This document shows, one piece after another, positions 3,001 to 54,666 of a DNA stretch of 64,000 nucleotides (positions within the stretch are counted from its first letter, which is position 1; each line of letters starts with the position of its first letter). The notes below the pieces were generated by a model. That model saw nothing but the letters and a program-made list of their open reading frames with translations, searched no databases and was not told the DNA's origin. Source of the stretch: a virus; IMG/VR virus record IMGVR_UViG_3300044995_000369, positions 15,196 to 79,195 of that record; one strand, written 5' to 3'. Position numbers and translations under genes: made by a program.

Positions 3001-3501
3001 AAGCCATTCCCACTCTTGGTCTCTTGTATACATTTCTCTGTACTGAGCAACTTTTCTGTCATCCTTACTAACATAGACAGTATAAGGCTTTTCGTTTATG
3101 TCTTGAACAAGAGTCCTTATTCTTCTTTCTAATTCTTCTCTTCTTCTAGCTATATCTTCATGATCTGCATCTACAGAAGACTCTTCTGCCCTCAGTTCCT
3201 CTAATTCTTTTGCGTAATTATAGAATTCTTCATTTATCTTTGTTTCGTTGATAGTACTCTGTGCTCTAGGATTTCTTGAAAAGTGTGTACCTCTTCTTAC
3301 ATTTCTTTCGTAATTTCTGATCCTATACAAAGCATTTCTTCTTTTGTCTGCTGCCCTAGCTCTTTGTATAATCCACATAGCAGCAGGGGGTAAGCTAGTC
3401 AATAAGCCCAACTGAAATATTGATTCATTTTGATAATCTCCTTGGTTTTCTGGAGATAGGGTAGGATTGTTTAAATATATTTCTGCGTCTCTATATTTCA
3501 T
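1..3501 (-). CDS. Giant hypothetical protein, >1167 aa, 3'-truncated by the window edge; probable virion/ejection protein
   Basis: Not in the ORF track because its stop lies outside the window. The ATG at 3501 overlaps the TGA of the upstream gene (ATGA). Manual translation (MKYRDAEIYLNNPTLSP...NMATRENQNEDARRLIEASR) showed no stop down to base 1. Confidence 0.85.
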   Translation of the reverse strand, partial: MKYRDAEIYLNNPTLSPENQGDYQNESIFQLGLLTSLPPAAMWIIQRARAADKRRNALYRIRNYERNVRRGTHFSRNPRAQSTINETKINEEFYNYAKELEELRAEESSVDADHEDIARRREELERRIRTLVQDINEKPYTVYVSKDDRKVAQYREMYTRDQEWEWLRSAESGESFAESVRRLEAAKIIAEQRHIVDSMKSRLEVKDLTSSGQKAFRILAKFLKNSFGVNIDNIDSNPREFENIKVYKGSPGMYRYEITLPSGYGNAKFEVELPAFYGDDMIRKQIELAGFSENRFDGKLFSSFIAHNTFRIDGQTRVSKVKYRVEGKKNILILPSQTVFGEGGRFDGTIRALTAQVQRLQRVPGKKDNLSLINTIVSTIRNLQFDEEAFEVIEKSHEQELFPGSVILERPKLMAEDPEKAALMDYIKQKGISDLGKRGSKSVKDIIRELNLKYLSSITENPMYLLIDGRELELYDIESRTTLAGSTGAAESAKTVAVPSGVAFAGGHAQGQQALRTNLALGFNINSAVKRAIHTGARVSYYEERKIMADRLRKIRMRLSSAKSRAESMETDQETRFNPRFQSIKRGKERIKKILAKYRMVPGLERYDIANQKWKTTTKGSFMEGEEASFRVRRVLITIGDELSGVLGVERDQSITIGRYGVKFSEIYNNPNVDLIQVSNSIAYIADHTVTFNKASEEAVSRRVRRGREDSIKYISGRESKSGSRIFKSITRKLKEAEKNRSPMILVTREEAQALDIPVSENMRVEKLRGSSVELQTPHYVVLFEKRYTGDSNIVQYRFAGDYNTKNILGEVTKESSKTTNKIMAPQGARELVEHVFSQRVSSDPEVRIARAAAEAIERNHIHQVSSGDFLIGKGYNLQLNEGIFRRILSQLAENELSDAKNLSQYVKYSMKGQIGYLDSRQAVININGQMAKGSSFYEAAEDLFAKIILGRDRRPGERFISSLGISRVKSSGETTVSFKLTANALENWRHTKATVKFLEMIRDKNIEAMKKVNEDINAILLQRNLGSSKNKDLFFGYIDDQSPGKTYVTKVVNMVAGDKVNSSKSMFLDIMFGQGVAQGHDFYPKHSKPVYGNNFYEGGAIFNAIEITGMRNINRAMSSYLSSLMSMNIERNYLSRMAALSFNKSINMATRENQNEDARRLIEASR

Positions 3502-6500
3502 AGTCTGACAACCGATCCAAATTTAGGTATGAATCCTGGGTATCCTGGGTCTTCATCTAGCGTAGGAATATCCATACCTCTAACATTCTCCATATACTTT
3601 ACCCTATTAACTTGCTGGGTCCAACCAAGACCGAGTTCATGAGCATCCAAACCTCTGGTTTGGAGAGTTTTGTAGATTATGTCATCCGATCTGAACCGAA
3701 GAGGAGCTCCTTCTACTACTCTTCTGGCATCTGTTATATACTTCTGGTATATGCTAGTATCGGGGACTTCGCCTGTAGCATATGATAAAAATAGACCTCT
3801 GGTATGAGCTGGCAAGAGAGGGGCTATTTTTTCTATATCCTCCTTGTGCATATTTAGCATCATTCTTCTGACATAAGACCTTTCAGCAGGGGATAGAGAA
3901 CCAGTAACATCGTTAAAACCTGCTACTTCTCCCAGATATGCCCCTTCAGTATAAGCATAGTAAGCGGAGGATTTCTTTCTTAATGTGAATCTCCTATCTC
4001 TAGCTTCGTATTCATCTGCCAGCTCTGTTGCCTCTTTGTACTTCAGAGCGTCGGCAAGAGCCTGTACATCATCAAGTTCTTGCATCCTGCTGGCTCTTGT
4101 ATTACTAGTTAGACCAAGCAAACTAGCAGCCCCTGCAATCCCTGCACCAAGGCCAGCTCCAATAGGACCTCCAAATATAAATCCTCCTGTTGCTCCAGAC
4201 ACAGTTGCTTGAAGAGGATCTTCTTCTGCTGCTATCAAGCTTATGTTTGCAGCAATGTAGTCTTCTATCGGATTTTGCCACCTAGTAAATCCTTTACCTA
4301 ATGCAATATCTTCTCTGTACTGTTCATACATAGATTTCTTACCCATCAATTTATTGAGTATGGGATTCCTAAAGTGTGTAATGTATTCTCCAACCGCTCC
4401 AATCAACTGTTCTGGTTTCGAGTACTTTTCTGCTTCCTCTCTGAGTTTTATCGCTTCTGTTCCCATGGGGGTTTTACCCATTAACAAAGGAATAAACTTA
4501 TATTCTTGAGTTTTTCGAGATTTGAGTCTTTTGATAAATTGATCCATGATATTCCTGTACATTGCCATCTCTTTGTTTCCCAAAATACCAGCACCAATTT
4601 GCTGGTGTACAATCTTCATTTCAAGCTGGGTCTCTTTTGAGAAAGGAGCAACATTTACAAGTATTTGGAGTCTATTTAGATGAGAATATGCGGGCCATCT
4701 GTTAACGGAGTACCCTTCTTCTTGAATATCTTTAGTTATTTTGCTGGCTTGCCTTGCTGCTGACTTTGCCAGCTTCACATCATTCAGATACTTTTTCAAG
4801 TCTGCATATATAATTTGTTTACTTATATTCCCATCTTTATCCATGGCTATAAGTAAACCCTGCTTGATATCTTTTGTGTTGTTTACCAAGTATGCATTAA
4901 GTTGAGCAACTCCTCCAGGGTCCACGTAATTATCTATTATTGGAACAACTGCAATTGCTGTTTTCAAACCCTTTTCATCCTGCATTACTGCATCTACAAA
5001 AGAGTGCACGTCATTTTTCACATCATATGCTACATCTGATTCTTTAATAATCGGCATTGTTTTTTTGAGTTCTCCAATAAGCTCTTTTCTTGTTCTTTCT
5101 ACAACATGCCAGTTTCTCCTAAGAGATGCTAAGTAAGTTACGTCTCCTGCATAAAAACTGACTTGTTCCTCAAATGACTTTCCCATTACCATTGAGTCTA
5201 TAGGATATGTATAATAAACGTCGTGGGTTGCTTCATATGCTTTCCCAGGAAGTCTAACCTCTCCCATTTGGATTTTGTTGTAAGGATCTCCTGTAAGAAA
5301 GTCTATAAAGGAGTCTTTCCCAGGTAGCCATAGTGGCATAGCGTTAGCTATCCTGTTGACTCTTTCTGTGTCACCAGGAGAAGGATTTGGGAATATACGA
5401 CGAATTCCCTCACTTAATCCAACAATACCTCCAAGTTCCTTTTCCCAATAAGCTTTGCTAAAACTTGCTATATCATTTGCAGATTCTATTCTGAAACCAC
5501 CACTGAAACCGGTAGGACCTCTATCTGTGGCCATATCTATAACATTACCCAATACAAATCCACGAAGGCCAGCAACATCTAGCATGTTATCTATTGTTGT
5601 GTCTGTAGCAGCTCCAATACTGTCGGGACTTATGATCGGAAGAGAGGAGATGGAACGCCCTCCTACTATTTCTCCTCCGTAAAAAGCTCCCCTTCCGCTC
5701 GATATAGGAGTTATTGAGTTAAGTGTTCCAGAGTATTGGAGACCTGGTACTGCTCCACCAGCTAGTAATGCACTTTGACTCATTTCTTGAAGAAAGTCTT
5801 GGTGCATATACCTACTCCCCCCAACAAGTGAATTTAGTGCGGTACCAATAAGAGGAAGGTTGCTAAATTTCCCTCCTACCATTTCATATGGGCGACTAAT
5901 GTAATGTTTTTCAGCATATACTCCAGGGTCTATGTAAGACTGAACCACATCAACTAGATCATTCCCGATATAGTTATCTGCTCTTTGATACTGTTTCTTT
6001 TGTAGGGCATACAAGGAAGGTCTAAAGTAAGTTATCTTATCTCCCCAAAATGCAGAACCGGAAAGCTCCCAAAACCTGCCCTTAGATACAGCAACTTCTT
6101 TTTCTCCGCTAAGTTCTGCTATTACTTGTTCTCTGCCTTTTGCTAAATTCCAACTATCGTCAAAGAGTCCAAGAGGACCTCCCCCCAAAATCATACCTAT
6201 ACCAGCACCTATCATACCTCCTTTTATAGGACCAACCCTACCCATATTACCAATTTTCAGGCCCATTCCTATTGGTAATAACCCTCTTATTAAACCAGAT
6301 AGAGGAGAGTCTATTGAACCAGGGACTAATTCCTCCATTTTTTGAGCGAATGATGTTATTCCTGTAAAATCACTCACTGTTTGGGAAAGAACTCTTGCTC
6401 CAGCATAAGCATCCCACAATATACCAGTTACACCCCCAGCCAAGCTAGTTTCTTTCAGTAAGGGAGTTTGTTGTATAAGACTAGTTACTAGATCGTGTGC

Positions 6501-9500
6501 ACCAAATAGTAACCCTACAGGAAGAACCCTTTTTGCAAGAGTCTTTGTAATAATATCAGAGACTGTAAAAGTATTTTGTAAATCAAACCCTAGTCCAAGT
6601 ATACTTAGAGCAGAGTTCATAGTTCCCACAGCTGCCAAGTGCTCTATTTCTCTTCTATTTATTGGTACTTCTCTAACATCTACCTCTGTCCCTTTCAGAA
6701 TAAGGTTTGATTTTCTTACCCCCATTTTTTTGGATGTATCATCGAACACCAGAACAATTTTATTTTCTGCTCCTGGTGCTTCCTTAATTCTCTTTTTAGA
6801 TCCAAACGTACTTATTGCTTCTCTAAGATTTGCCCTTCCTGAACCCAAGAAAGTACCAGATAAAAACTCTATAGACTCGGCTAATTCTGATCGAGTCAGT
6901 GCATCAACGCTTTCTCCCGGAACATATTTGTTTCCAACTGTCAGCATGTGTATTGCTGCAGATATACCGTTCATATTGGTTTCACCTAGTCTAAGCTTTG
7001 CAGAAGAAACTCTACCTGCTCCATAAGAGGACACTTCCGATAGGACTCTCGCAACCGAGTCCCTGGTAAACCTATCAGAGCTTGAGATGCTTAGGAGAAA
7101 ATCAAATATTTCCTTATTGTGTTTGTCTATTCTGTCTCCGTGCCCTTTAAGACTTGCGGATAAAGCTGAGGCTCTTGTTCTATCTTTGCTGCTTAGTACA
7201 AGTTCTTGCAGTTGCCTAAGGGGTGATTCGTCAAATCCATGAACTTCTTTCAGGTAGCCTTCATGACGAGAAAAGAATTCATTGGTGTACTTTATCTTGT
7301 TTAGAACATCTATTAGGCCGTCTTTTTCATCTATAACTGCTTTCCTAATATCAAAGGCCCCAAGGACTGCTCTATCTTGAGCACTTATTCTGTTTGATTT
7401 TGCTATCACATCAAATACTTTTAATAACATACCAGTCATACTTTTAGAAGGATCTACAGCACCTTCTGCCATATCTGCTGCCCTCATGGAGGCAAAAATG
7501 CCGTTAATTATTTTTTTGGAGTAACTGTTTATCCCTTTTACTATTTCAACAGCTTCAGTGTCTCCTTTCCTTAATATGTCTTCTAACTTTTCTCTGTTCA
7601 AAGCTCCTCTTTTTAAGTCTCCAACTACTTTCCCAATGTAGGAAGGATCTTTGTACTTTCCAAAGATAGATCTCACTTTTCCGAACAAAGATTGCTCGTG
7701 ACCACTATTCCACTCTAAGAAGTCCCCTAATGTTGTAACAAACTTTGTAAAGCCAGTATTTTCAGAGTCCCTATAATACCTTTTCATCTTTATATTGGTT
7801 GTAGTTTCAATACCGCTTTCTATTTCAACTCCACTTGGGCCAGTTATAGAAGCTTTACCTCCAAGTAATCCGCCCGCGATCTGTCCAGCTCTGGTATCTC
7901 CTCTGAGAAGCTTTGCTCCTTCTATAGGAGCATCTCCGGCATGCAGTATGAAAGTTACTTTGTTTCCATCTGCCAATTTGGTATGGACTTTCACGTATCT
8001 TCCAAGAACATCCAAAATGTCTCCACTTCCGAGGTCCCACTGACCTCTAGTCATTACTCCGAATGCTATTTTATCTGCTACGAACTCTTTTACTGCTTCT
8101 TCGTCCCCTTTATCAGCACCAAATGCTCCCCATTTGCCAGTTATTCTTGCGTATTCTATTGCTTTCTCTTGTTTGGCTTTTAGATAGCTTTCTGCAACTG
8201 ACTCCTCTGCCTTAGTCATTATTTGTATCGCTCTTTTCGCAGCAGAGACTTTGCTTCCGCTCTTGTTATATTCTTCTACTAACTTTTCATCATTTCTTGC
8301 AAAAGTGTAAAGCTCAAGAGTCCTACCACCTTGAAGACCAACGACTCCCTTCCCTGGCTGAATACCATGTGTAAGTGCCTTAGTCTTAGCTGATTGCAGC
8401 CAGTGGTTACCTGCATCCAGAAAGTTTAACCAAGGCCTGTTAGCGATATTAAGAAATTGAGTAACTATTTTATCCATAGCATCTCTTATAGAATCTATAT
8501 GAAAGACTCCTATGTCATATCTTCCTCCTAGGAAATCTATTTTTGCTCTATCCTGAGTTACTTGTCTTACTACATCCGTAGTTATGATTTCAAGATTTTC
8601 AGACCTTTGGACTGGTGACTTCCTGATAACTTTAGTTCCCATATAGCCTATGTCATCTCCATAATACTTTGCACCGGCTAACTTACGAAGTCCTCTATGG
8701 ACTTCTGCGAACTTCTTGTTGAATCCTACTCTCTCCAGTTCTCTCCCCTCTCCAGTTGCAATATCCCTATATAACAACTGGCCTTTTACAGTCCTCCTAC
8801 CAGATTCTTTTTTAACAGAAGAGACTGGAGCTCTTTCATCTCCCATCAAAGTTGCGTAAGAATCGTACAAAGAAGTTTTATCTTTGAACTCTGCATCTTT
8901 TACTTTCGCATCCACTATGGACAAATCTGATCTTCTTGCTTTTCTTGCGTTCACTTGTTGAACTGATCTACCTATCGCTTTGAGTGCGGCAGTAGTAGAT
9001 CCAAACGCTTTAAAAGTCTGGTTTGCAGAGACAAATTTGGACATTGCATTATCGTAAACAGCAAACATTCCCTTTGTCATTTTGTTTAGATTATGCAAAC
9101 TTTCTGCACCAAGTTTTGCTAAGGCTTCCAAACCGAACACAGAGGATTTCTTAGAAAATGTAGCTATTCTAGCCATTTTCAATGAGCGTTTGGCAACATC
9201 AAATCCAGCACTAAACCCCAAAGACAAAGGCAAACCAGTAGTGGCATAATAGTTAAGAAAGTTTTGATCTGCAGGGATGTTTCCTTGTATTTGTTCTACC
9301 TTGTACATTACATATGTCATTGGTAGAAACTTAACTTCCCCTTTTATCGCTCCTTTTACTACTTGCCTTGCAAAGTTGCTGCGACTACCTACTTTCCTTG
9401 AAATAGTATCTATTCTCTTTTCGTATCCTTTGATTATTTTCTTCTTGAATTTCTCCACATTCGAACTAACTTCTCTGTTTATTTCTCTGAAGTTCTCTCT

Positions 9501-9713
9501 GTAGTATCTTAGGTAACTTGTCCTTAGGTCTTGGTAAGATCTGATCTTTGCGCCAGTCTTAATGACAGATAAACTTGCTCTTCCAGAGGCTTTCAGACTA
9601 GATAAAAGTTTTCCACTATTTCTGAGTGCCCAATCACCAACTTTTTGTAGACCTTCAGATAATGCGTGGCCAACAATTGGATAGGCTATAAAACTGCCAA
9701 TTGTTCCCAACAT
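3498..9713 (-). CDS. Giant tape-measure-like/ejection protein with a degenerate PD-(D/E)XK-like domain
   Basis: 2071 aa, helical and basic, with Gly/Ala-rich hydrophobic segments (GGMIGAGIGMILGGGPLG; GATGGFIFGGPIGAGLGAGIAG). Follows a chaperone-like gene pair in the tail module. Contains VHSFVDAVM...AQLNAYL. Confidence 0.6.
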   Translation of the reverse strand: MLGTIGSFIAYPIVGHALSEGLQKVGDWALRNSGKLLSSLKASGRASLSVIKTGAKIRSYQDLRTSYLRYYRENFREINREVSSNVEKFKKKIIKGYEKRIDTISRKVGSRSNFARQVVKGAIKGEVKFLPMTYVMYKVEQIQGNIPADQNFLNYYATTGLPLSLGFSAGFDVAKRSLKMARIATFSKKSSVFGLEALAKLGAESLHNLNKMTKGMFAVYDNAMSKFVSANQTFKAFGSTTAALKAIGRSVQQVNARKARRSDLSIVDAKVKDAEFKDKTSLYDSYATLMGDERAPVSSVKKESGRRTVKGQLLYRDIATGEGRELERVGFNKKFAEVHRGLRKLAGAKYYGDDIGYMGTKVIRKSPVQRSENLEIITTDVVRQVTQDRAKIDFLGGRYDIGVFHIDSIRDAMDKIVTQFLNIANRPWLNFLDAGNHWLQSAKTKALTHGIQPGKGVVGLQGGRTLELYTFARNDEKLVEEYNKSGSKVSAAKRAIQIMTKAEESVAESYLKAKQEKAIEYARITGKWGAFGADKGDEEAVKEFVADKIAFGVMTRGQWDLGSGDILDVLGRYVKVHTKLADGNKVTFILHAGDAPIEGAKLLRGDTRAGQIAGGLLGGKASITGPSGVEIESGIETTTNIKMKRYYRDSENTGFTKFVTTLGDFLEWNSGHEQSLFGKVRSIFGKYKDPSYIGKVVGDLKRGALNREKLEDILRKGDTEAVEIVKGINSYSKKIINGIFASMRAADMAEGAVDPSKSMTGMLLKVFDVIAKSNRISAQDRAVLGAFDIRKAVIDEKDGLIDVLNKIKYTNEFFSRHEGYLKEVHGFDESPLRQLQELVLSSKDRTRASALSASLKGHGDRIDKHNKEIFDFLLSISSSDRFTRDSVARVLSEVSSYGAGRVSSAKLRLGETNMNGISAAIHMLTVGNKYVPGESVDALTRSELAESIEFLSGTFLGSGRANLREAISTFGSKKRIKEAPGAENKIVLVFDDTSKKMGVRKSNLILKGTEVDVREVPINRREIEHLAAVGTMNSALSILGLGFDLQNTFTVSDIITKTLAKRVLPVGLLFGAHDLVTSLIQQTPLLKETSLAGGVTGILWDAYAGARVLSQTVSDFTGITSFAQKMEELVPGSIDSPLSGLIRGLLPIGMGLKIGNMGRVGPIKGGMIGAGIGMILGGGPLGLFDDSWNLAKGREQVIAELSGEKEVAVSKGRFWELSGSAFWGDKITYFRPSLYALQKKQYQRADNYIGNDLVDVVQSYIDPGVYAEKHYISRPYEMVGGKFSNLPLIGTALNSLVGGSRYMHQDFLQEMSQSALLAGGAVPGLQYSGTLNSITPISSGRGAFYGGEIVGGRSISSLPIISPDSIGAATDTTIDNMLDVAGLRGFVLGNVIDMATDRGPTGFSGGFRIESANDIASFSKAYWEKELGGIVGLSEGIRRIFPNPSPGDTERVNRIANAMPLWLPGKDSFIDFLTGDPYNKIQMGEVRLPGKAYEATHDVYYTYPIDSMVMGKSFEEQVSFYAGDVTYLASLRRNWHVVERTRKELIGELKKTMPIIKESDVAYDVKNDVHSFVDAVMQDEKGLKTAIAVVPIIDNYVDPGGVAQLNAYLVNNTKDIKQGLLIAMDKDGNISKQIIYADLKKYLNDVKLAKSAARQASKITKDIQEEGYSVNRWPAYSHLNRLQILVNVAPFSKETQLEMKIVHQQIGAGILGNKEMAMYRNIMDQFIKRLKSRKTQEYKFIPLLMGKTPMGTEAIKLREEAEKYSKPEQLIGAVGEYITHFRNPILNKLMGKKSMYEQYREDIALGKGFTRWQNPIEDYIAANISLIAAEEDPLQATVSGATGGFIFGGPIGAGLGAGIAGAASLLGLTSNTRASRMQELDDVQALADALKYKEATELADEYEARDRRFTLRKKSSAYYAYTEGAYLGEVAGFNDVTGSLSPAERSYVRRMMLNMHKEDIEKIAPLLPAHTRGLFLSYATGEVPDTSIYQKYITDARRVVEGAPLRFRSDDIIYKTLQTRGLDAHELGLGWTQQVNRVKYMENVRGMDIPTLDEDPGYPGFIPKFGSVVRL

Positions 9714-9738: not shown

Positions 9739-10611
9739 CTAAGAAAGGTTTGACGGTAGTGGGACTTTTCCGGGATCAGAAGATTCCATTTCAATAAGCT
9801 CTGCATTTTCTGCAGCTGTGTTAATTCTTCTCTTAGGTCTACCGAGTGCAGCTTCTTTTTTGTCCTGTGCAATTCTTTGGCTCAGGATTTCTTTGAGCTC
9901 TCCAAAATCTGCCTCTCTGTCTTTGCCCATAACCCTTTCGAATTCTTTACCAAAGTTCTTGTCTGGAGAAAGTTTTATGGGTTTGTTTAGCTTTACTGCC
10001 AGATCGTATCTGTCTTTTAAGATTACTCCAGTACTACTTTCTAGAGCGGCAACAATGGACACTTTTTCATCAAAAGACCTAATTTGTCTAAAGTCTAGAT
10101 AATCTCTAATGGACATGTTTGCTATCACCATATTGTCCAGAAGAGAAGAAGGGCTTGCTAGTTCCATTCTTCTTTCTTCTAACATTTTAAAAAGTTTATT
10201 GATGTCTTTGTTTACTTCCTCTATGTCTGAACCTGATATTTCAAACAAAGCATCAATTATTCCCTTGACCAAAAGGGAGTAAGACATTACATACTTAAGA
10301 TCAACTCCAATTACCCTTAAGTGATTATTAAAAAGGTGGACTATTGTTGGAAGAGTATACCTTTTTGGAGAGTATAATCTGTAGTCTTTAATGTCCAAAG
10401 GAATAGCAATTACTTTGAATTCCTTGTCTTGAAGTCTTCCCTTTTTTCTAAGGCTCTCTACAAAAGAGCGAGGAACCAAAAGTCCATCGTCAAGAACTTT
10501 TGGCTTTATCTTAATTACGTTGTATAGCTTCTGCTGAGGCACTTTTACGGATAAAGCTCCTCCAATTCTTTTTCGTCGTAGGCTTCGACATTTGTTTCTA
10601 TGTCTGACCAA
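9739..10611 (-). CDS. Hypothetical protein, putative tail assembly chaperone (second of pair); real start may be the GTG near 10542
   Basis: Lies directly upstream of the tape-measure-like gene and overlaps the preceding ORF in the -1 frame. Function is inferred from position only. Confidence 0.45.
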   Translation of the reverse strand: MVRHRNKCRSLRRKRIGGALSVKVPQQKLYNVIKIKPKVLDDGLLVPRSFVESLRKKGRLQDKEFKVIAIPLDIKDYRLYSPKRYTLPTIVHLFNNHLRVIGVDLKYVMSYSLLVKGIIDALFEISGSDIEEVNKDINKLFKMLEERRMELASPSSLLDNMVIANMSIRDYLDFRQIRSFDEKVSIVAALESSTGVILKDRYDLAVKLNKPIKLSPDKNFGKEFERVMGKDREADFGELKEILSQRIAQDKKEAALGRPKRRINTAAENAELIEMESSDPGKVPLPSNLS

Positions 10612-11207
10612 CCACTATGTACCTGAATAGAGGAGGCAATCAGGACAAGGTCTCCGTATGGCACTTTTCTTTCCAGTACCTTCTTGGAATGGTTTTCCGG
10701 AAAGACAACTCCCATCATATTAACTACTATTTCGTTTACTCTTTTACCGATATTGTTTGCATTCTGCTCTACCCAGTTTTCTACAAACAACTCTAGCTTC
10801 TCCAGTTCATCTTTGGGAAGGTCTTCTTCTGACTTGAAGTTCTTGCCCTCTTTCCTTTGCAGGGCAAACCACTCTCTTTTTCCAGACTCTCTTGCCTCCC
10901 TTATTTCCTCTTCTTCTACTGTTCTCATTGCATCTTCTACCTTTTGCATGTCTGACATTGTTATAGCTCTGAGGATATAGACCCTATTTTTGCCAGGTGC
11001 GACACCTTTAAGGATCAATGGCTGGAGCAAGTCATCTGGGTATTTCTTTTCATATTCTGCGAGTTTAGCTTGAATCTGTTCTTTCGTGAGATTAATGTTA
11101 TCAGGAATGTTCTTCTTTTCCTGATCGGCAGATGCTGCTTCATCTGGTTTTCTACTCTTTTCCTTTTCTGATTCCCAAATCATTTTACTCTCCATTTTTA
11201 ACTCCAT
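10545..11207 (-). CDS. Acidic hypothetical protein, putative tail assembly chaperone
   Basis: 220 aa, Glu-rich, with YILRAITMSD and a C-terminal SIQVHSGW; sits upstream of the tape-measure-like gene. Confidence 0.5.
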   Translation of the reverse strand: MELKMESKMIWESEKEKSRKPDEAASADQEKKNIPDNINLTKEQIQAKLAEYEKKYPDDLLQPLILKGVAPGKNRVYILRAITMSDMQKVEDAMRTVEEEEIREARESGKREWFALQRKEGKNFKSEEDLPKDELEKLELFVENWVEQNANNIGKRVNEIVVNMMGVVFPENHSKKVLERKVPYGDLVLIASSIQVHSGWSDIETNVEAYDEKELEELYP

Positions 11208-13036
11208 TAGCTGAGTGTAACTACTATACCATTATGATCTGAAATATAGGATTTGTCAATAGTATGTAGCTTTTTCCAGTATTTATTTCTATAGGACTCC
11301 TCGTTCATGTTAAAACCTCCAGGTTCATGAACTTCGATGCATTCATATACTTCCCCTTTGTAAACAATTTTGAATCCTGTATTGTATTTGGATACAGAAG
11401 GAGACCAAAACGGATAAACTTGCTCCCAGTCTGATTTTATAAAATTAGCTTTTGGCTTTTGCTCAATAGAACCTTCTATATCTGTTCTTTTTATCTCCCA
11501 AGTGAATTCTTTATCAGGGAACAATTCCTTAATAGTTCCTCTTTTTTCATTCTTAGTTCCTTCCAATAAGATGACTTTACACTTGCCATTTAGGGATCCA
11601 AGATGATTCTCACCTGGCTTTGTTGCTACTTTGGTAAGAATTGCATATCTGAATTCTTTGTTTTCTTGGGAATCTATTTTTACAGTTACATCGAGACTTT
11701 TAATTAAAGAACCTTCTCTAACATATCCGGCACTATATCCTTTAGAAGAAGAATTCTTTCTGCACAAAAATAGTGCAGATCCATTCTCTTTGTTGCCAGA
11801 AACATCTCCAGGAACTACATAATACTTACCCTGTTCATAGAACTGTATTTCATTAGGTTTATATTCCTCATATTTTATGGTGTTTTCCGGAGAGTATATG
11901 TCTATAACCTTGAACGAGCTCTGGTTGAGACTCTGCGAAAAGCTACCTTCTATATCTGACCAGAGTATATGGTCAATGTCAAGAGATTTACTTTGATCAT
12001 ATGCATTAGGAAAGCTTACATAGTCTCCTGTTATAGTTTTCATAGGGGGGTTTAAAACGGAAGTAAAGAAACTTAGAGAAGCATCTCCCACGAACTCCGG
12101 AGCTGTTAAGTTCCTTTTCCTTGTTGTGTTAAAATCTCCTCCGACTACGAATCCATAACTCGAAGAACCAGCCTCTTGAAATTGTTTCCTTTTTGATTCA
12201 ATAAACCCTGCTGCGACAGAACAGGTCATTTCTCTTAGTGTTTTATTCCATGCTTGAAGGACAGTTAAAACAGAAGAGTCTACAGAATTAAGACCTAGGG
12301 CTTTAGGAGATGGTAGATTTGATTTCAAGTGCACATTCAAAACCCAGATCCTTGATCCTTGGTGCAAAATCCGGGCAGCCAATATTGGGCGGATACTCCT
12401 GTTGAATTCAAAGTTTACTAATAACTTTCCCCAAGCTGGCTGTCCTGCGACAGCTTGTTGTAGCTCTGTTCTGGTATTTTCTACATAGTTTATAAGTTTG
12501 ATTGTTTCTAATTCGTTGGCAGGACCAAGTGAATCAGTTCTAGGTCTTTTATGAGCGTCAAAGTATTCAAAGACATTTATACGTTCAACTTCTTCTATGG
12601 GACTTTTAGATACAATACACAACTTTTGAGATTGATTTACAACTGCCTGGTCATTGATGGTGGATACAAGATATGGATAGCATATTTTATCTCTATCTGA
12701 CTGATCCACACTTTCTGTGCTCAAGTAAGAATTGTACCTCGCTATTACTGATGCCAGGTAGTTAACGGAAACCACTTCTTGAAAGAGCATTACGTCTGGA
12801 GCATCCTTACTTGTAGGAAAGTTTGTTTTGAGGATTTCAAACAACTTTGATACTCTTTCAAAGTCCACCAGTTTACCTTTGTCTAGTGGAGTTTTTGTAG
12901 TATCTGCATCTTGTAACTCTTTTTCGTTAGCAAGAAATGCTGCAGAGTCCATGTAGTTAATGTCTTCATCTAGTAGGACAGCCCCACCTACTGCGGGGAA
13001 GAATTTAAGGTTCCATGAAAGAACTTTCAGATCCAT
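11207..13036 (-). CDS. Endonuclease/exonuclease/phosphatase (EEP, DNase I-like) family protein with inserted carbohydrate-binding-like module(s)
   Basis: EEP motifs in order: VLSWNL, PDVMLFQEV, NVHLKS, VGGDFN, IDHIL and terminal SDH. A CBM5/12-like segment WSPSVSKYNTGFKIVYKGEVYEC...YWKK lies before SDH. Confidence 0.85.
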   Translation of the reverse strand: MDLKVLSWNLKFFPAVGGAVLLDEDINYMDSAAFLANEKELQDADTTKTPLDKGKLVDFERVSKLFEILKTNFPTSKDAPDVMLFQEVVSVNYLASVIARYNSYLSTESVDQSDRDKICYPYLVSTINDQAVVNQSQKLCIVSKSPIEEVERINVFEYFDAHKRPRTDSLGPANELETIKLINYVENTRTELQQAVAGQPAWGKLLVNFEFNRSIRPILAARILHQGSRIWVLNVHLKSNLPSPKALGLNSVDSSVLTVLQAWNKTLREMTCSVAAGFIESKRKQFQEAGSSSYGFVVGGDFNTTRKRNLTAPEFVGDASLSFFTSVLNPPMKTITGDYVSFPNAYDQSKSLDIDHILWSDIEGSFSQSLNQSSFKVIDIYSPENTIKYEEYKPNEIQFYEQGKYYVVPGDVSGNKENGSALFLCRKNSSSKGYSAGYVREGSLIKSLDVTVKIDSQENKEFRYAILTKVATKPGENHLGSLNGKCKVILLEGTKNEKRGTIKELFPDKEFTWEIKRTDIEGSIEQKPKANFIKSDWEQVYPFWSPSVSKYNTGFKIVYKGEVYECIEVHEPGGFNMNEESYRNKYWKKLHTIDKSYISDHNGIVVTLS

Positions 13037-16000
13037 TATGCACTAACTCCGATTCTGTCAAAAGTTATAATTCTAACCCCGTTAGTGTTTGCGTTAACTT
13101 TGGCAATTTGTTTAAATCCTGTCCCAAGCTTCTTAGCATTATCTGGCAATGCCAAGTCTGTTTCGGACAATGGACTGGATTTCTTAAATCCTACGCTTAC
13201 TTGCTCCCACTGTAGCTTCAAGGAGCTACCACCTCCCACTGTAGTAGACTTGAACCTTATTATGTAATTACCATTTCCTTCTTTTCTTTCAAATATGTCA
13301 TAAGAATCAATATCCGAGTATATCCTAAGCATATTAGGTCCTAAAGGACTTATGCTTGGTTTAACTCTTCCTAGCTCTCCAATTTCTATTTGTGCTTGTT
13401 CAAATTCTTCGTCTGAGAGTTCTACTCCTATGTTGTCTACACCAATAAACATTTTTGCAGCAAATAGTGACCATAAAGCTGCTATAACTTTCTTATCAAA
13501 CTTCTCGACGTCCTTGTCTATTTCGATACTTGTATACGCACTATTTTTTAGGCCCCCAAGAGAAACTCCTAAAATTGACAATGGTTCTCCGGTTGCATAA
13601 ATGTCATAATATTTTGAGGTTCCATCATTCTTTCCGAAAGTATGTCCTGTTGCAACCATAAACTTTTTACTGTCGAATGTTTTGGTGATTGCTAGCCTCT
13701 TGCTATCTTCCACTCCCAGCAAATCAGCAAAGGAACAATACTTTTCATCCTTTCCAGGTCCGGAAAATAAAGACTTAAGCTTCCCTCCAATTTCTTTTAC
13801 AAAGTACTCTCCTGGTACATATGTTAACTCATTTAGTGTCAAATCTGATAGTCTAACACTATCTGACTTGTAAGTCTTTATTGCAGGGTCATTGTATCTG
13901 TCTTTTAGGTACCTTAATTTAAGCTCTGCTTTTGCAAGTAATATTCTGTTGACACCTGGAAGGTAAGAAAAGTGTATATCTGACTTTTCTGTAACAAGTA
14001 AATTGTTTGGTTTATTTTCATTGCCGGGAGAGTTTGTTTTCAGTACTGGGCTCCTTTTAGGGATAAAAGAAGGGACTTCTTCCAAGCTAGAAGACAGCAA
14101 GTTGGACTCTGATTCTGGATCTCCACACAGCGTTAAGCCTTCTCCAAAAGACCTTGTGCATGTTAAACCGTTTATATTTTTACCTATGCCAACACTCACA
14201 TTAGTTACAGCGACATGTATTTTTTTGTTGTCAAGAGTTGAAGACGGTCCAATATATACTTTTGATGCAATCGCAAATAGCTGTTCGACTTTTGTCTCAT
14301 TTTTTCCTTCCTTTAGAACGGAAAGTCTGACAGGAAGGCTACTTGGCGAGGAGGGCATTTTTGCCCCAGAAACTAGAGAATAGAGATCTATTTCATTTAC
14401 TGCATCTATGTCGGACTCACAACTAGAGCCATCCATATATTCAAAAATGCCACCAGCCTCTGACAATAGATCAAACAAAAACTGTAACATATCGATATTT
14501 CTCTTATTTCCGGAATTCTTGTCCGACTTCTTAATTGTTATGACATTTTTTAAGTACGATAGTATCGCAACTGTATAGTAGACTACTCCACCAGAGGCAT
14601 CAAAGAAATACGCTCTATTATTCTTTCTGTTGTCTTCTTCATTCTTTAATATATCAAGTGCTCGGCTAAACTCTTTTATAGACCCTTGATCAATTTCTAG
14701 CTTGATGACTACCGACGATAAAGAATTCTCTGAGATATACTTTTCTATTTCTTCGACCCTGGTAATGTTGGAAGGAAAAACCTCCCCAGATGATATGCTA
14801 AGGAAGATTGCAGTATTTGAGCTATCATCTCCTCCATTGTTACTACTGTATAACTTTGATGCTTTGGCTGCTTCATAATACTTTTTTAACAGATTGGAAG
14901 CAAGTACAACATTTTCACTATTATAGGAACTTAAATCACCTGATTGTGAGGTGTCTGAAGGTATAAGTATAGTTGGTTTTTGCCCTTTTTCAACATATTC
15001 CCCACCGAGATACGATCCTACCCCAAAAAAGGAAAATAGGGACTTTTCGGAGATGTTTTCATCTATATTGGTAACTCCTGTGAGATAGGAAGAAAAGACT
15101 GTCTTGATATCTTCCCCTATGTTTCCAAAGTCCGGAATTACAACTACTGAAATATAGGAAGGTGAAACTGGTTTCCCATCTTTTAAAAACCCTTTCCTTC
15201 CGGATTGCCTTAAGATGCCTACATCTTCTTGGGAAAAAGATAGCTCACCAGGACTCTTTACATATATACCAGCATAAGGGTTTACTGCGTTTGGATCTTT
15301 GTAAAACTTGTAAGAAGTCAGCAGCTTGGAAAGCACTGCAAAGCCATACAGAACGGCTCTTCTTTTAGAAAGGCCTATATTTGTCATTGAAGTCAAAAAG
15401 GATAAAGGGTGGAAGTCTACAATGCTCTCATGATCCGATCCACCTTCTAAGAGAGAGTTGTAGTCATCAAATGTCCCATTTAGTATACCTTCCAAGGTTC
15501 TAAATTTTGTTCCCCTTGGAAGGTATGGATACATGCCATTTCTAAGGAGGAAGTCTGTATAAGTCTTTCCCGTTACTGTTAGCTCAGAGTTTTTTATAAA
15601 ACCAACATCTCTGAGTTTATCTGAGTTAATCATCTCTACTATCTTGTTTTTCTTATCCTGGTAGGAGTGGTTGTTTCCAATTTCTCTAGTAAGTTCTTCC
15701 GCGTCTGATTTCTGATAGGCAGCAGGAACCCCAAAAGCAGCAGTGAAATAGATATCTCTTTCAATGCCAGGAACTTTGGTGTCAGAGAAGTTTCTTAAAA
15801 CAAAAGAAAGTCTTCTTGACCCTTCGTTAGATGAATCTGCATATAAAGAGGTACTTAATATTTGCAGAAGCTGAGCCGGGAGCCAATTTAGATGTTTTAG
15901 GGATTGGTCGTTTTTTTGTGCCAATTTTTTGGTTATATTAAGAGCAGTTTCGAGATTACTTTCTATTCTCTTGTTTTGTACAGCACCTTCTGTGAGAGCT

Positions 16001-24200: not shown

Positions 24201-24436
24201 GTCTTACTGTTTTCTTCTCTGTGTTCAATGCCTACTATTTCAGATATCCAGATTGGACCAAAGAATACACTGCACCTAACGGAAGATTTATGGTTGGACT
24301 TGTAGGGATCATAAAAAGTGGGGTCTTTAGACTGCTGAGTAGTGTCGGCTATACCAAACTCATCAGTCCTAGTGACAGCCTTTATTGATGCCCTGGTAGC
24401 ATCTAGTTTGTCTTGGAATTGTCTAGTATCTGCCAA
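21227..24436 (-). CDS. Virion structural protein with N-terminal tail-tube-fold domain (tube initiator/baseplate hub-like)
   Basis: The N-terminal EIVGIEHREENSKTPVYHYASQYFDDILEGKYIVRGNL parallels LSGLATSLTREKVPVYTFGSANARSISRGKRACAGSM of the tube protein. TTG start with a GAAGGG SD. Confidence 0.6.
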   Translation of the reverse strand: MADTRQFQDKLDATRASIKAVTRTDEFGIADTTQQSKDPTFYDPYKSNHKSSVRCSVFFGPIWISEIVGIEHREENSKTPVYHYASQYFDDILEGKYIVRGNLYVFETKTNELLATIAKYKTLLAKENYQRELIKDIVSQRNNLLAADINVRLLSKYGPTEAARIVDQSLKRINTEIITGRDWDLPKLIIVSGDITDPEPAIDVFEDVTFDTSSKAILADGATQIRVISWFGRRRPIRDNPETGSLLGKKRIDFDATVRNFMDSFMNFLKSNMKVLIKDVSIPVALNPNNIGFIGSLPPAIAGWGPELCLTPVKVEQYGVPDIIPLQYNTVYYEIDSPAETAENIIKENKPYQYREYKRGEIPTRTTLRGVWKNLFPDPDFLIANTPFISRALPTHRALSYSWLIPVPAMPGTVGDSFGQDPLLPARIKNSGDYTFQEEDTHSVTGSTLMAAFMTVAMYRDYDERTGGFIRAPVRSMFYMPIPTIKTEDLDDKTKRVLIEDYPLIQQGDFLSIIENRISLPDEYSSLVPLKQTFDGSYVKVAKSATPTASKVSPIDLVSKYEAEAWYLLTPLGPLDIIFGASSFLSNVFETVTLGILSNSDKVVNYEIDLQDDFGKVAYGFAVDSVIVQVFPLGLDELIANSTIGELSLAFGSHAKVNRAIAASLLDGCECVSNEEIDYIYSIVGFNETGFNKVLNFSATWNKDTIARLLRDKKLPGMLVRIVSDRVRDLGGRFTQVIGRNDYVSAATTMPSSKVVYTSFIRCDRSYFTFDERWPKDIFTTLANVSANAGLNFYRRETDIAIRLFAGSLRALKHDGVWQALTFNIIQGGGTALTLGGIGLAASGIGLAAKTIGIFGSAALDTAEGIWNLAIHVPIINEAVNILDSIGLDLTTIFQDTTIVRSSRTGGETPVPSTALKNISVYNNGERYIVFKDRLAEYLSRIIYNDVKEIISANPDEYEGDEVLANGGTSVGGAVYNRVDTQLVDGFNRYFKSPEWSVDYIYGEDLDKLVGGITSETGEPLLSNAGSKTSEVFLLTRKAPRPSMFVLDEAVKDPNAYRGQDPNPRGIIF

Positions 24437-26776: not shown

Positions 26777-26778
26777 AG

Positions 26779-27477: not shown

Positions 27478-27478
27478 C

Positions 27479-30176: not shown

Positions 30177-30205
30177 ATTATACCCACTAAAACTAACTAT
30201 GTCTA
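30177..30205 (-). promoter_or_regulatory. Sigma70-like promoter TAGACA-N17-TATAAT, 8 nt upstream of the ATG (probably leaderless)
   Basis: Direct sequence reading; located just after the terminator. Confidence 0.65.
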
Positions 30206-30210
30206 TAAAC

Positions 30211-30236
30211 AAAAAGAGGTCTTTTAGACCTCTTTT
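30211..30236 (-). terminator. Intrinsic terminator after the tail tube gene (potentially bidirectional)
   Basis: aaaaa-gaggtct-ttt-agacctc-tttt stem-loop flanked by A/T tracts. Confidence 0.8.
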
Positions 30237-30257
30237 CATCTTGGTATGTTATTCAGC

Positions 30258-51157: not shown

Positions 51158-54100
51158 TACCTTAGTGCAAGACTATTAATATAATTCATAACTTGGGAAG
51201 TAGTTGGAGGATAATTACCAGCTGTTTGAAATCCCCCTTTCCCACTGAGCATAATGTTTGCATCTTCTATATAGTCGTTAGGGTCAAGCCTTTTGGGCTG
51301 TCTTATGATTGGTCTAACAATCTGATCAATACCTTTGTCTTTGGAATGGATAGGAGCCAAAAATTGTGGTTTTTTTGAAGAGTTAACAAGTACTGGTTTG
51401 TTATCTAGTAAGGACTCAGGTACCCCTATTATTGTAGTATTTGGTACTCTCTCTCTGCTCATTTTAGCCAAGAGTAAAGAACCATTACTTATACTTTTTC
51501 CAGTAGAACTGGCGTCAGATTTCATCAATGTACCATCATAATCGTGATAACTCTTCAACTCAAATCCACCACGATTGAAGCTTATGAACCTGTCATATTT
51601 GGATAAGCTTTTCCTATTTGCCATGATGGAAGAAAGATAGCTTTGGTCTTTTATGAAACCTGTAGGTTCTATCTTAATTTCCTGGTTGTACGGAAGAAGA
51701 ATAGGTTCCTCAAAAATGGCTGCTGACTTGTAGGTTTTTTTGGAAAGATGAGTCCTACCAATCCAATAGGGGCTAAAAGAAGGTTTATCAAAAGAGTATA
51801 CTTTCGGGATCCTTGTTGCTATATAAGATTCATCTGCAGCCAAAATACCAATGTTTTGTCTCATGAAGCTGAAAACATTACTCTGGTCTATATATACATC
51901 CCTTCCCGCCCTAGGAAAAGTCAAACCAAAAGTTTTAACTTTGTCAGAAGGTCCTGAACTCCCAATGAAGAATCCTTTAGAAACCTGATATCTGATAGGG
52001 TTTTTAGAAGTATAGGCCTTATCTAAAGATATTTTGAGATCGTTCCATACAGATAGCCTGTCTGACCTAACTAGTTCTTGAAGTTTCCTGTTTAAAGTAG
52101 GAGAACTTAACCTATTCCTAATAGTTCTATCTAAGATCAGCTTTTCAACCCTAGGAGTGGTTTTGTTCAAAACAGAAGAATACTGTTCTATTTCAAGTAG
52201 CTCCTGAATTGCTCTTTTTTCTGAAGAAATAACTGCCGGCATCAGGGCTCTTTTTTCCATACCTTGGATGAACTTATCTGAAAGGCTAAACCTAGAAAAA
52301 TCAGAGGGCTTTAATTTTATTCTTTTCAGTATTGCTTCAGCAAACTTCCCAACTACTCCCAAACTTATAGCACTGTTAAAAGGAGTAGTTAACACTCTTC
52401 TGGCAACGGTTTCCATAGAGTTGTGTTCACCAGTTTCAATAGAAGCTCCTGGTGAATCTTCAGCGTTATTCCTCACCAACCATAAGAATCCAGCTAGTGC
52501 AGCAACTCTTGAGATTGCTGGGGAAGTTAAAGCTTTAGCAAGGAGCCCGGGATTCTTAGTAGAAAACTTTGATAACCTTTCCATTTGAGAAACATATTGA
52601 GCAGAGGACGAATTGAAATCAGCATCCATCTTTTTTATCAACAAGGACTCCAACTCTTTTTTAAAGGTATTTCTAAATTCGGACTCTAATTTTCCAGAAG
52701 TTTCGGCTTCAGGGGCTTCTTTAACAAGACTCTTTTTTAAATTCGAGTACAATTTTCCCAAAACATTTACTCCCTTTTTGGAGAAGCCAGCCTTTTTATT
52801 GTTTATTATGTTAAAAATATCTTCTATACTTGACTGCTGGGCAATGTAATCAGTAGCTATTTTTAGCTGAATTTTCCTGGCAACTGTTGCAGATAAGTCT
52901 ACTAATCCATAAGGACTTTCTGTAACAGTCCTAAGGTTAGTCCCTTTTATCTTCTGAACTGTTTTGGATCTATAGTGATTTGAACCTGAGAAGATACTTT
53001 CTAGAATTAAGCGAACGTGGTTCAAGTCTCTTGCGTCTAGTGCTCCAGTGTGAAACTCCTTTGCCCCTGGGTCTAGCAGTATTTGATAAAGGTTTTCCAA
53101 TGACAGCCCCTTACCTCTGTCACCTATGAAAGAGCCTACAGTAGACTCTTGAAGGTTTCTCAATACACTTATAGGGACAAACTTTTCAAGGATGCGAGTT
53201 ACCCCCGTAGATGTATCTGAAAGGTTTGCTTTTATGTTAGGAAGTAGTCTATCAAACAAGGTTTCTGTTACACTTTTTATGTCTACTAATTTACTTTTTG
53301 CATTTTTAAGTAATATGAGGGACTCTTCCAAGTCCTTAATAGTCTCTTTATTTGCACCTCTTGCTTTGGCAGCTTTTAGCTCACTTTCAAGAGCATTGAT
53401 CTTGATATTAAATGCTCCTGTTTCTGCTGAGGAGTAAATGCTTACTTGTTTTGCCTCCATTCGGTTCACTGCTTCCGTCACAGAACCCATAAGATTGTTC
53501 GTTATTTTGGTCTCTTCATAATAAGTCTGCCTTCCTCTTTTTTCGTCCAGTTGTCTTTGTACAACTCCAAGATATACTTCTCCATAAATCATGTGACTGC
53601 TTTGGCGAGACGCCAGGTCTTTGTTTCTTTTGCTTGCTTTATCATCAGCTTCTTCCTTTAGAAAAACTAAGAAGTCCTTTAACTTGTTTTTATCTGTTTC
53701 CTTTTCTTGAAATGCGTTCTCGAACGCCCTTATAAAGTCTTTTATGTGTTTCTCTCCTTGTTCCACAACTGTAGTTCCAAGATCTAGTGGTTTGATCTCT
53801 TTGATTTTTTTGGCAATACTACCCAGTTTTGCTATTGCCCTTTGCCTGCTCTTTTCAAACCACTTTTTTTGATTTTCGTTCATCCAAGCAGGAGCAAAAC
53901 TTTCCCCAGAAACATAAGCTCTTATAGCATCATACATCAGAGCTATGTTTTTCTTACCATACTTGTTTCTTTCGGAAATACCTTTATCTGCATATTCAAT
54001 CATCATATTGATATCAAAGTAGGTAGTAAGTTTGTCTTTATAAGAACGAATATTTTTAAGTCTACCCCGAGAAAGAACACCGTCGTACTCAGGTAGAGTA

Positions 54101-54666
54101 TATATAGTTTCTACCGTTTCTGTAATGCCGGCAGAGTATATGTTTTCAAAGGATATTCTCTTTTGGACATCATCTATGTGCGATTCAAAATCTAAAGATA
54201 CAACCCTTCTTGTTACCTTCTCAGCTTGTTCAACAAGGATTTGATTAAGAGCTTTACCTTTGAGATGTTCTGCCTTATTGAGTTCACTTATAAGTTCTGC
54301 TTTTTCAGTTGAACCTAGCTTTTCTGACCTTATGTCTGTTTTTATCCCTTCTTTCAGGTAGGTTAAAGTTTCCCTAGCCAAGGATGTGGCAATTCTTTTA
54401 TTAGCAATAACTTCTATACCGTTAACAATTCTTACGGTTACTTTTTTCTTTCCATCAAAAAACCTAATATCTGCAGGGTAAGACTGATGGGTTCTTATAT
54501 TTAGGAGAGTATTAATTCCCCTAAACTCGTAAACACCGGTCGCTGCCGGGTCATTCTCTACTTTGAGTTCGAATGGTATTCCTTCCCTTATTAAGGGATT
54601 GTCCCTGAGGAATTCTTGAACCCCGTTGTATACCCCTGTCTTTTCAGAAGCTTGACCAGAAAACAT
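51154..54666 (-). CDS. Large protein with dispersed DEDDh (DnaQ-like) exonuclease motifs
   Basis: ExoI-like VVSLDFES and ExoIII-like GLSLENLY...FHTGALDARD; ExoII is not clearly seen. Confidence 0.6.
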   Translation of the reverse strand: MFSGQASEKTGVYNGVQEFLRDNPLIREGIPFELKVENDPAATGVYEFRGINTLLNIRTHQSYPADIRFFDGKKKVTVRIVNGIEVIANKRIATSLARETLTYLKEGIKTDIRSEKLGSTEKAELISELNKAEHLKGKALNQILVEQAEKVTRRVVSLDFESHIDDVQKRISFENIYSAGITETVETIYTLPEYDGVLSRGRLKNIRSYKDKLTTYFDINMMIEYADKGISERNKYGKKNIALMYDAIRAYVSGESFAPAWMNENQKKWFEKSRQRAIAKLGSIAKKIKEIKPLDLGTTVVEQGEKHIKDFIRAFENAFQEKETDKNKLKDFLVFLKEEADDKASKRNKDLASRQSSHMIYGEVYLGVVQRQLDEKRGRQTYYEETKITNNLMGSVTEAVNRMEAKQVSIYSSAETGAFNIKINALESELKAAKARGANKETIKDLEESLILLKNAKSKLVDIKSVTETLFDRLLPNIKANLSDTSTGVTRILEKFVPISVLRNLQESTVGSFIGDRGKGLSLENLYQILLDPGAKEFHTGALDARDLNHVRLILESIFSGSNHYRSKTVQKIKGTNLRTVTESPYGLVDLSATVARKIQLKIATDYIAQQSSIEDIFNIINNKKAGFSKKGVNVLGKLYSNLKKSLVKEAPEAETSGKLESEFRNTFKKELESLLIKKMDADFNSSSAQYVSQMERLSKFSTKNPGLLAKALTSPAISRVAALAGFLWLVRNNAEDSPGASIETGEHNSMETVARRVLTTPFNSAISLGVVGKFAEAILKRIKLKPSDFSRFSLSDKFIQGMEKRALMPAVISSEKRAIQELLEIEQYSSVLNKTTPRVEKLILDRTIRNRLSSPTLNRKLQELVRSDRLSVWNDLKISLDKAYTSKNPIRYQVSKGFFIGSSGPSDKVKTFGLTFPRAGRDVYIDQSNVFSFMRQNIGILAADESYIATRIPKVYSFDKPSFSPYWIGRTHLSKKTYKSAAIFEEPILLPYNQEIKIEPTGFIKDQSYLSSIMANRKSLSKYDRFISFNRGGFELKSYHDYDGTLMKSDASSTGKSISNGSLLLAKMSRERVPNTTIIGVPESLLDNKPVLVNSSKKPQFLAPIHSKDKGIDQIVRPIIRQPKRLDPNDYIEDANIMLSGKGGFQTAGNYPPTTSQVMNYINSLALRY

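Follow-up and report, generated by a model that had tools for sequence, protein, structure and literature searches.

Three predicted nuclease-superfamily domains in large genes of an uncultured jumbo myophage, two of them in basic, cysteine-free proteins

A 64,000-nt stretch of viral DNA (the window; bases 15196–79195 of the 79,195-bp IMG/VR record IMGVR_UViG_3300044995_000369) encodes three domains of different nuclease superfamilies inside large genes: a Cas4/RecB-type PD-(D/E)XK fold in a 2071-residue protein, an endonuclease/exonuclease/phosphatase (EEP) domain in a 609-residue protein, and a stretched DEDDh 3′–5′ exonuclease fold in an 1170-residue protein (Table 1). The DNA belongs to an uncultured jumbo myophage that is distantly related to Bacillus thuringiensis phage 0305phi8-36 and falls in the wider lineage of that phage. 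We favor, at about even chances, a reading in which the three domains are real and were independently acquired, and in which two of them—the Cas4-like and the DEDDh domains—plausibly sit in a delivered set of proteins to which the EEP domain does not belong. A first-pass annotation made from the sequence alone had named the three folds and proposed a single packaged and ejected set; what it observed is partly confirmed, and how it interpreted this is partly supported.

On sequence homology, the 2071-residue protein is assigned as the counterpart of 0305phi8-36 gp145, which the record of that phage labels "virion structural protein" and annotates as identified as a virion protein by mass spectrometry. 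In tblastn it matches 0305phi8-36 ORF145, ME3 gp035, and sequences of Edson, WH1, KLEB27-3, and MTATph1, and it aligns with gp145 across the C-terminal half (hhalign probability 100, E 6.4e-45). The family has 26 homologs; its cultured relatives are 0305phi8-36, ME3, and Edson, and MTATph1 is a Moorella phage. Like gp145, the protein has no Cys, its gene follows two tail-chaperonin genes and precedes a giant gene in the tape-measure position, and it conserves a core with the motifs W..LGG, MP.WLPG, GDPY.K, and GE.RLPG..YE; unlike gp145, it has an N-terminal half of unrelated sequence. The core (residues 1190–1500, of which 1200–1500 is common to the lineage) has no predicted fold, with a predicted local distance difference test (pLDDT) score below 50 in AlphaFold2 (AF2). 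The gene stands directly after the tail-chaperone pair, the placement expected of a tape measure, and that label was considered and dropped: Hardies et al. gave the tape measure role in 0305phi8-36 to gp146, the gene after gp145, with gp145 itself "one gene removed" (PMC2147016), and we therefore call the protein gp145-like. Inteins (PF14890, PF14528) occur in homologs P0020, P0032–P0034, P0036–P0038, and P0040 at no fewer than four sites, near residues 1184, 1430, 1455–1480, and 1690–1780 in the numbering of the window protein, whose own copy is intein-free; inteins have been reported in tape-measure proteins (10.1101/2025.01.02.630785).

The AF2 model of the gp145-like protein covered residues 1190–1835 and is confident for residues 1499–1664 only (pLDDT 74–93), where it places a restriction-endonuclease-like core fold. 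Foldseek matches this part to Cas4 SSO0001 (4ic1) with E 6.4e-5 and probability 1.0, and the VIA search gives a top Z of 10.8 over 152 aligned residues; the structural matches include ACE1 alongside known Cas4/RecB nucleases. With the latter (Cas4 SSO0001, Pcal_0546 [4r5q], lambda exonuclease, RecE, MGME1, and AdnAB) the domain shares a fold of ~150 residues at Z 8–10.8 and the succession of an Asp pair 10 residues apart and, ~30 residues on, a Q-x3-Y helix. Among 18 aligned relatives the pair, D1564 and D1574, is invariant and is followed after ~30 residues by a conserved L-N-A-[YF]; the Gln of the helix is found in the closer relatives only. We take the spacing of the Asp pair and L-N-A-[YF] to fit motifs II, III, and IV of RecB and Cas4.

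The domain lacks the catalytic Lys. A complete (D/E)-x-K occurs in 0 of the 18 aligned relatives, the Lys position being occupied by V, I, T, L, or M in 18 of 18 sequences, and with either register (D1574-A-V or A-I-A-V-V) the window protein and its closer relatives have no motif Lys; some distant members carry a Lys in that strand without an acidic partner. The first-pass label "degenerate" is right for this reason. Further departures from Cas4/RecB enzymes are the absence of the four Fe-S Cys ligands of Cas4, of any Cys in the whole protein, and of a Pfam match (PF12705 is unmatched across the record at E ≤ 10), and the embedding of the domain in a virion-type giant between Gly-rich hydrophobic segments. 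Metal binding may survive without the Lys. The site that holds the domain is variable: Edson apparently skips it, and gp145 has a different insert of ~435 residues at the same place, with the RecB-like motifs G-G-F-F-D, D-I-K-T, and Q-x3-Y. That insert is not linked to the domain of the window clade by the hidden Markov model (HMM) of the Cas4-like domain, which detects neither gp145 nor ME3 gp035.

The DEDDh fold, of the RNase H-like alpha/beta type, lies in a part of the 1170-residue protein that AF2 models confidently (approximately residues 150–690). The top 44 rows of the VIA search are DEDD domains (Z 8.1–12.0; 120–196 residues aligned; model residues 151–564), with the Pol epsilon exonuclease at Z 12.0 over 178 aligned residues, 3′hExo at 10.1, ExoI at 9.9, and Pol III epsilon at 9.4; the matches also take in Cap18 and diDNase-type small-substrate exonucleases. 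A full HMMER search gave 15 representatives of the family. Across 14 sequences, with identity down to 17%, D159-x-E161 (ExoI) and H539-x4-D544 (ExoIII) are nearly invariant, as are G520, S522, and E524. The ExoII residue, assigned from sequence only, is position 246, which is D or E in 11 of 13 covering rows (one row has Q and one is not cleanly aligned). The S-L-x-x-L … H-x4-D stretch resembles the ExoIII region of DnaQ. In the model the DEDDh fold is real and its predicted catalytic set intact, and the protein is probably an active DEDDh 3′–5′ exonuclease.

The protein has in common with DnaQ-like DEDDh enzymes (Pol III epsilon, 3′hExo/ERI-1, ExoI, ExoX, RNase T, TREX1, and the proofreading domain of PolB) the fold, at Z 8–12, the D-x-E of ExoI, an acidic ExoII residue, and an ExoIII H-x4-D after S-L-x-x-L. 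Unlike them, it is basic and cysteine-free, spreads the fold over ~415 residues instead of ~180 by way of ~270 residues of helical inserts, and adds an N-terminal beta domain and ~600 C-terminal residues. This C-terminal half is poorly modeled and includes a hydrophobic helix followed by a near-invariant block that reads P-G-A-S-I-E-T-G-E-H-N … A-R-R … T-T-P-F-N-S. The Pfam RNase_T signal of such enzymes is missing: PF00929, matched in 13 of 14 control genomes, is not matched at E ≤ 10 anywhere in the 79-kb record, nor on sub-fragments of the protein. A Foldseek search of the PDB with the model brought up nothing significant, tblastn of the protein against the phage collection found nothing, and the protein is without a match in PDB sequences and in a protein atlas. 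A 123-residue fragment of the family (P0057) is a hypothetical protein of a Spirochaetota metagenome-assembled genome (TXG79144.1, 9.5-kb contig), a placement that either hints at the host or reflects a binning artifact.

The EEP domain is recognized from sequence directly. PF03372 matches the 609-residue protein at 29.5 bits (cut-off 24.5; E 7.7e-7) and is present in 6 of 6 homologs (57–90% identity); N9, E87, H236, D301/N303, D353/D355/H356, and S599-D600-H601 are invariant in the seven sequences. The full catalytic set is thus that of the EEP superfamily (DNase I, ExoIII/APE1, sphingomyelinase C, inositol 5-phosphatases, and CCR4), from whose members the window protein differs in being encoded inside a phage tail operon and in an insert before the final S-D-H, where a weak CBM5/12-like stretch (PF02839, E 0.061) stays below the cut-off. 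No NCBIfam or PDB sequence match places its subfamily. The protein is acidic (pI 6.0), has 5–6 conserved Cys, and has no feature tying it to nucleic acid. Its gene and the adjoining gene for a 2729-residue protein are missing from the corresponding site in L003, a relative in IMG/VR with shared synteny there, and form a lineage-specific insertion.

We consider it extremely improbable that the DEDDh and PD-(D/E)XK calls are artifacts of low-confidence models and chance motifs. Such an artifact would go with the mean pLDDT of ~55 in both models, the empty Pfam, NCBIfam, and PDB sequence searches, and the empty Foldseek search for the 1170-residue model; but the nuclease domains themselves are confident (pLDDT 70–93), the top rows are DEDD domains throughout for one model and of Cas4/RecB type for the other, and it is the catalytic columns that stay conserved at identities as low as 17%. 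The stretched DEDDh and the degenerate PD-(D/E)XK of the first-pass annotation are thus borne out by structure prediction and its EEP domain by Pfam, and the motifs, on whose conservation in homologs its proposal hung, are kept in all three families.

Composition separates the three proteins. The 2071-, 2676-, 1170-, 479-, and 152-residue proteins contain zero Cys against a background of 0.73%, which has a probability of 2.7e-7 for the 2071-, 3.2e-9 for the 2676-, and 1.9e-4 for the 1170-residue protein, and the five have pI values of 9.3–11.1. Conservation of this trait was checked in two families: Cys is absent in 13 of 13 homologs of the 1170-residue protein (17–64% identity) and in every intein-free gp145-like homolog. 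It is likewise absent from gp145, ME3 gp035, and Edson 0930 and from their tape-measure-position neighbors; the EEP and 2729-residue proteins and the hub-position giant (nine Cys) contain it. By this signature the DEDDh protein falls in with the virion giants, and the EEP protein stands apart. A basic, cysteine-free make-up fits proteins that travel with DNA, and avoidance of Cys would suit proteins that cross the tail and the cell envelope unfolded.

In the reading that we favor, the gp145-like protein would leave the tail together with the tape-measure-position protein, its Lys-less Cas4-fold domain would hold or cap a DNA end rather than cut it, and the 1170-residue protein would also be carried in the particle or act at DNA entry. 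The EEP protein, whose gene is translated together with tail genes, would be a tail-associated phosphodiesterase acting on host surface or matrix material, not on the phage genome; we keep it out of the delivered set because it is acidic, Cys-containing, and lineage-specific and has a CBM-like insert.

A narrower account, to which we give appreciable but minority weight, puts only the gp145-like protein in the virion. The Cas4-like domain would then be an inert relic, the EEP protein a tail-assembly or surface-depolymerase enzyme, and the 1170-residue protein an intracellular exonuclease with a role in replication, recombination, host-DNA breakdown, or signaling-nucleotide degradation. Gene context speaks for it: the 1170-residue gene and a 270-residue gene form a separate unit, with the PolB block on one side and the terminase block on the other, and this unit and the PolB operon point away from each other, with near-consensus sigma-70-like matches back to back between them at 55757–55812 (11/12 on the plus strand; 10/12 with TG on the minus strand). 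So do the intact catalytic residues, the Cap18 and diDNase-type structural matches, and the lack of a detected homolog in three related complete genomes, including 0305phi8-36 with its virion mass spectrometry annotation. Promoter class is uninformative here, since the scan finds sigma-70-like matches at late genes too and does not separate early from late. Moreover, the absence of Cys over 13 diverged homologs, a high pI, and a C-terminal half of ~600 residues that is poorly ordered and has a hydrophobic helix would each be unusual for a soluble replication exonuclease. The claim that all three folds sit in structural-module genes holds for the 2071-residue gene and, by operon position, for the EEP gene, and fails for the 1170-residue gene.

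The favored reading can be widened into an "entry kit" of basic, strictly cysteine-free giants that follow the DNA into the cell of a contractile-tailed jumbo phage, an extension that we regard as doubtful. Its members would be the gp145-like protein, with the Lys-less domain gripping the leading DNA end; the stretched, active DEDDh exonuclease; two small basic partners; and the tape-measure-position protein with a two-barrel RNA-polymerase center. The last proposal starts from a D-R-D-F-D-G-D sequence at residues 1970–1976 of the 2676-residue protein, outside the window (D-F-D-G-D at G000:C1:12769-12783), which continues as -R-G-K. D-F-D-G-D resembles the catalytic loop found in two-barrel RNA polymerases and may be such a center, as in gp96 of phage P23-45, a virion RNA polymerase fused to the tape measure (PMC10770324). 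Comparable sites read A-D-H-D-G-D in Edson and G-D-H-D-Q-D in ME3, 0305phi8-36 gp146 has none, and a PDB sequence search with the region was empty. The part of this giant inside the window has a pI of 9.5 and 13.6% Gly plus Ala (G+A), so that of the first-pass description "basic, Gly/Ala-rich" only the first half applies; the two plus-strand open reading frames (ORFs) to which the same words were given, of 152 and 479 residues, are basic (pI 11.1 and 10.0) with 14.5% and 18.2% G+A and have no family match. As a side observation, the N terminus of the hub-position protein of at least 3545 residues has a staphylococcal-nuclease match below the cut-off (PF00565, E 0.03–0.08; G000:C1:10207-10419), which could add a fourth fold of nuclease type to the tail giants, and the same protein has a strong hydrophobic helix pair at residues 2666–2703.

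The first-pass proposal itself, with the Cas4-like, EEP, and DEDDh proteins and the basic unknowns as one coordinated set that is packaged, ejected, and jointly active on the entering genome or against host defense, we judge unlikely. In its favor are the reality of the three folds and the conservation of their motifs, the virion location of the gp145 homolog, the basic, cysteine-free class that links the 2071-, 2676-, 1170-, 479-, and 152-residue proteins, and the D-F-D-G-D of the tape-measure-position neighbor, given the tape-measure-fused RNA polymerase of P23-45. The three genes also appear to share contigs in close relatives, as suggested by equal longest-contig sizes, of 117,695 and 103,927 bp for all three and of 77,690, 60,119, and 70,749 bp for pairs. 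Co-occurrence among related phages is apparent at close range, but within one close clade it is expected from shared descent alone, and neither PF03372 nor the profile of the 1170-residue family has a match in the complete 0305phi8-36, ME3, or Edson genomes. Each of the three genes, moreover, has a transcription context of its own, the Cas4-like domain has no Lys, and the EEP protein falls outside the basic, cysteine-free signature and belongs to a lineage-specific insert. The three nuclease folds as a single system are not supported.

Several points weigh against the favored reading of two delivered domains. The phage is uncultured, and none of the listed sequencing runs that hold its DNA is an RNA run. 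The absence of Cys is circumstantial only, and a 490-residue capsid protein and the 395-residue tube paralog lack Cys as well. The co-occurrence of the three genes rests on equal contig sizes and not on contigs read, and both AF2 models are confident in their nuclease domains only. For the Cas4-like domain, the motif II/III register comes from spacing, not from residue-level superposition, and K1550 is invariant, K1557 is invariant in the 18 aligned sequences, and K1586 is present in the closer relatives only; a noncanonical Lys could rescue catalysis. The 1170-residue protein, beside the PolB block and behind a sigma-70-like match, could be an ordinary intracellular exonuclease, and the EEP protein could be a DNase.

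Completeness of the record is put at 33%, so that the full genome would measure ~240 kb; the GC content is 38%. The sequencing runs that hold phage DNA are hot-spring and microbial-mat metagenomes, some of which are probably the source of the phage. Even the closest phages in culture are only remotely related to it: its capsid protein and that of Acinetobacter phage ME3 share 23% identity. The late block occupies the minus strand, with terL, an 877-residue gene, the portal, protease/scaffold-like genes, the capsid gene (PF25209), the sheath, and two tube paralogs; a plus-strand island is followed downstream by the giant-gene run of 1069, 2729, 609, 220, 290, and 2071 residues, and full-record ORFs add genes of 2676 and at least 3545 residues past the window edge. 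The order sheath, tube, tube paralog, gp142-like gene, two chaperonins, gp145-like gene, tape-measure-position giant, and hub is common to this phage, 0305phi8-36, and ME3.

Pfam, PHROGs, and NCBIfam gave no match for the 2071-, 1170-, 2729-, 1069-, and 2676-residue proteins or for the one of at least 3545 residues, whole or in pieces. PDB searches with single sequences and profiles returned noise only, a BFVD search gave nothing but tape-measure-like long-helix matches (TM 0.05–0.09, rmsd >35) that we treat as meaningless, a protein atlas search gave no usable match, blastn of a head-gene stretch against the phage collection found nothing, and IMG/VR and metagenome scans for related loci yielded only L003 and a 4.8-kb fragment. 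For the gene pair in the tail-chaperonin position, sequence homology to the genes at that position in 0305phi8-36 and ME3 was not detected. Its two genes overlap by 67 nt at 10545–10611, the second being in the −1 frame, and the overlap, which contains the A-run C-G-A-A-A-A-A-G, may be a G/GT-type frameshift; the 0305phi8-36 pair is two separate genes.

Further observations concern neighboring genes. Paralogs of 285 and 395 residues (28981–31115, minus strand) match phrog_9206, whose label "major head protein" is misleading because these genes correspond to the 0305phi8-36 tail tube gp140 and its paralog gp141. With the 1069-residue protein (21227–24436, minus strand), the gp142 position holds a third module related to tubes: its residues 42–105 resemble a tube-like gene of phage Edson, and L003 has a homolog of 1160 residues. 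The plus-strand island (24614–29003), which interrupts the tail block, carries recA with a LAGLIDADG intein (PF00154, PF14890, PF03161), a family-4 uracil-DNA glycosylase (TIGR00758, 1e-30), a 233-residue ORF without assignment, and a 284-residue protein with a faint Cas4/Csa1 match only (E 0.059). In terL (46666–49197) a mini-intein is apparent, the terminase PHROG matches spanning residues 66–156 and restarting near 286. A TnpB-like gene lies at the window end (63031–63909, minus strand; PF07282 1.2e-24, PF01385).

Table 1. Positions of the features discussed, in window coordinates
Feature	Position	Strand	Basis or context
gp145-like protein, 2071 residues, predicted virion protein; pI 9.3, no Cys	3498..9713	-	tblastn, hhalign, synteny, Cys count
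Predicted Cas4/RecB-fold PD-(D/E)XK domain, residues 1499–1664	4722..5219	-	AF2, Foldseek, VIA, motif columns
Conserved core, residues 1190–1500, common to gp145, Edson, and ME3	5214..6146	-	invariant columns, BLAST
Gly-rich hydrophobic segment flanking the core, residues 1140–1185	6159..6296	-	translation, run of invariant Gly
Second Gly-rich hydrophobic segment, residues 1838–1868	4110..4202	-	translation, invariant Gly columns
Basic, cysteine-free DEDDh protein, 1170 residues	51154..54666	-	family of 15 representatives
Predicted DEDDh 3′–5′ exonuclease fold, residues 149–564, with helical inserts	52975..54222	-	AF2, VIA, motif conservation
DEDDh motifs ExoI; ExoII; ExoIII	54181-54198; 53917-53958; 53023-53109	-	alignment
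Near-invariant block, residues 739–765	52372..52452	-	alignment; once only in genome
Predicted EEP phosphodiesterase, 609 residues; start and stop codons overlap those of neighbors	11207..13036	-	PF03372, invariant motifs, ORF boundaries
Insertion of ~235 residues between D-x-D-H and S-D-H motifs of the EEP domain	11255..11953	-	alignment
Acidic protein, 2729 residues, 15 Cys	13036..21225	-	between gp142-like gene and chaperonin pair; absent at L003 site
N-terminal 1167 residues of basic, cysteine-free 2676-residue protein	1..3501	-	genome ORF; position as gp146
Gene pair in tail-chaperonin position, 220 residues (acidic) and 290 residues (basic)	9739..11207	-	position as gp143/gp144, ME3 gp033/gp034 (PMC2147016)
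Two basic, cysteine-free ORFs, 152 and 479 residues	49253..51157	+	convergent with 1170-residue gene, divergent from terL

Phages are known to send proteins, among them pilot proteins and virion RNA polymerases, into the host along with their DNA. Delivered virion proteins include the N4 virion RNA polymerase and ejection proteins (PMC13434306), the ejection proteins of SPN3US and phiKZ (PMC5694885), and those of podoviruses (PMC8954989). The proteins described here are large like these and like P23-45 gp96, are candidates for delivery, and have the D-F-D-G-D sequence in a neighbor. To our knowledge, no Cas4-fold or DEDDh domain has been described in any of these delivered proteins, and a literature search found no paper on nuclease-fold domains in tape-measure, tail-lumen, or virion giants. 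New here are the Lys-less state of the Cas4-like domain, the DEDDh family, and the cysteine census.

The 1170-residue and gp145-like families are invisible to routine annotation because neither has a Pfam or PHROG model; with the three fold assignments and the cysteine-free signature, genes of this kind become simple to annotate in jumbo phages that are uncultured, and the gp145 part is directly testable thanks to the cultured relatives. If the wider entry kit were real, zero Cys would be a mark in the sequence from which the delivery of a phage protein could be predicted. If the Lys-less domain holds the genome end and the DEDDh protein is co-delivered, the pair would represent a new way to protect or process incoming DNA, with relevance to escape from RecBCD-type and other end-sensing defenses.

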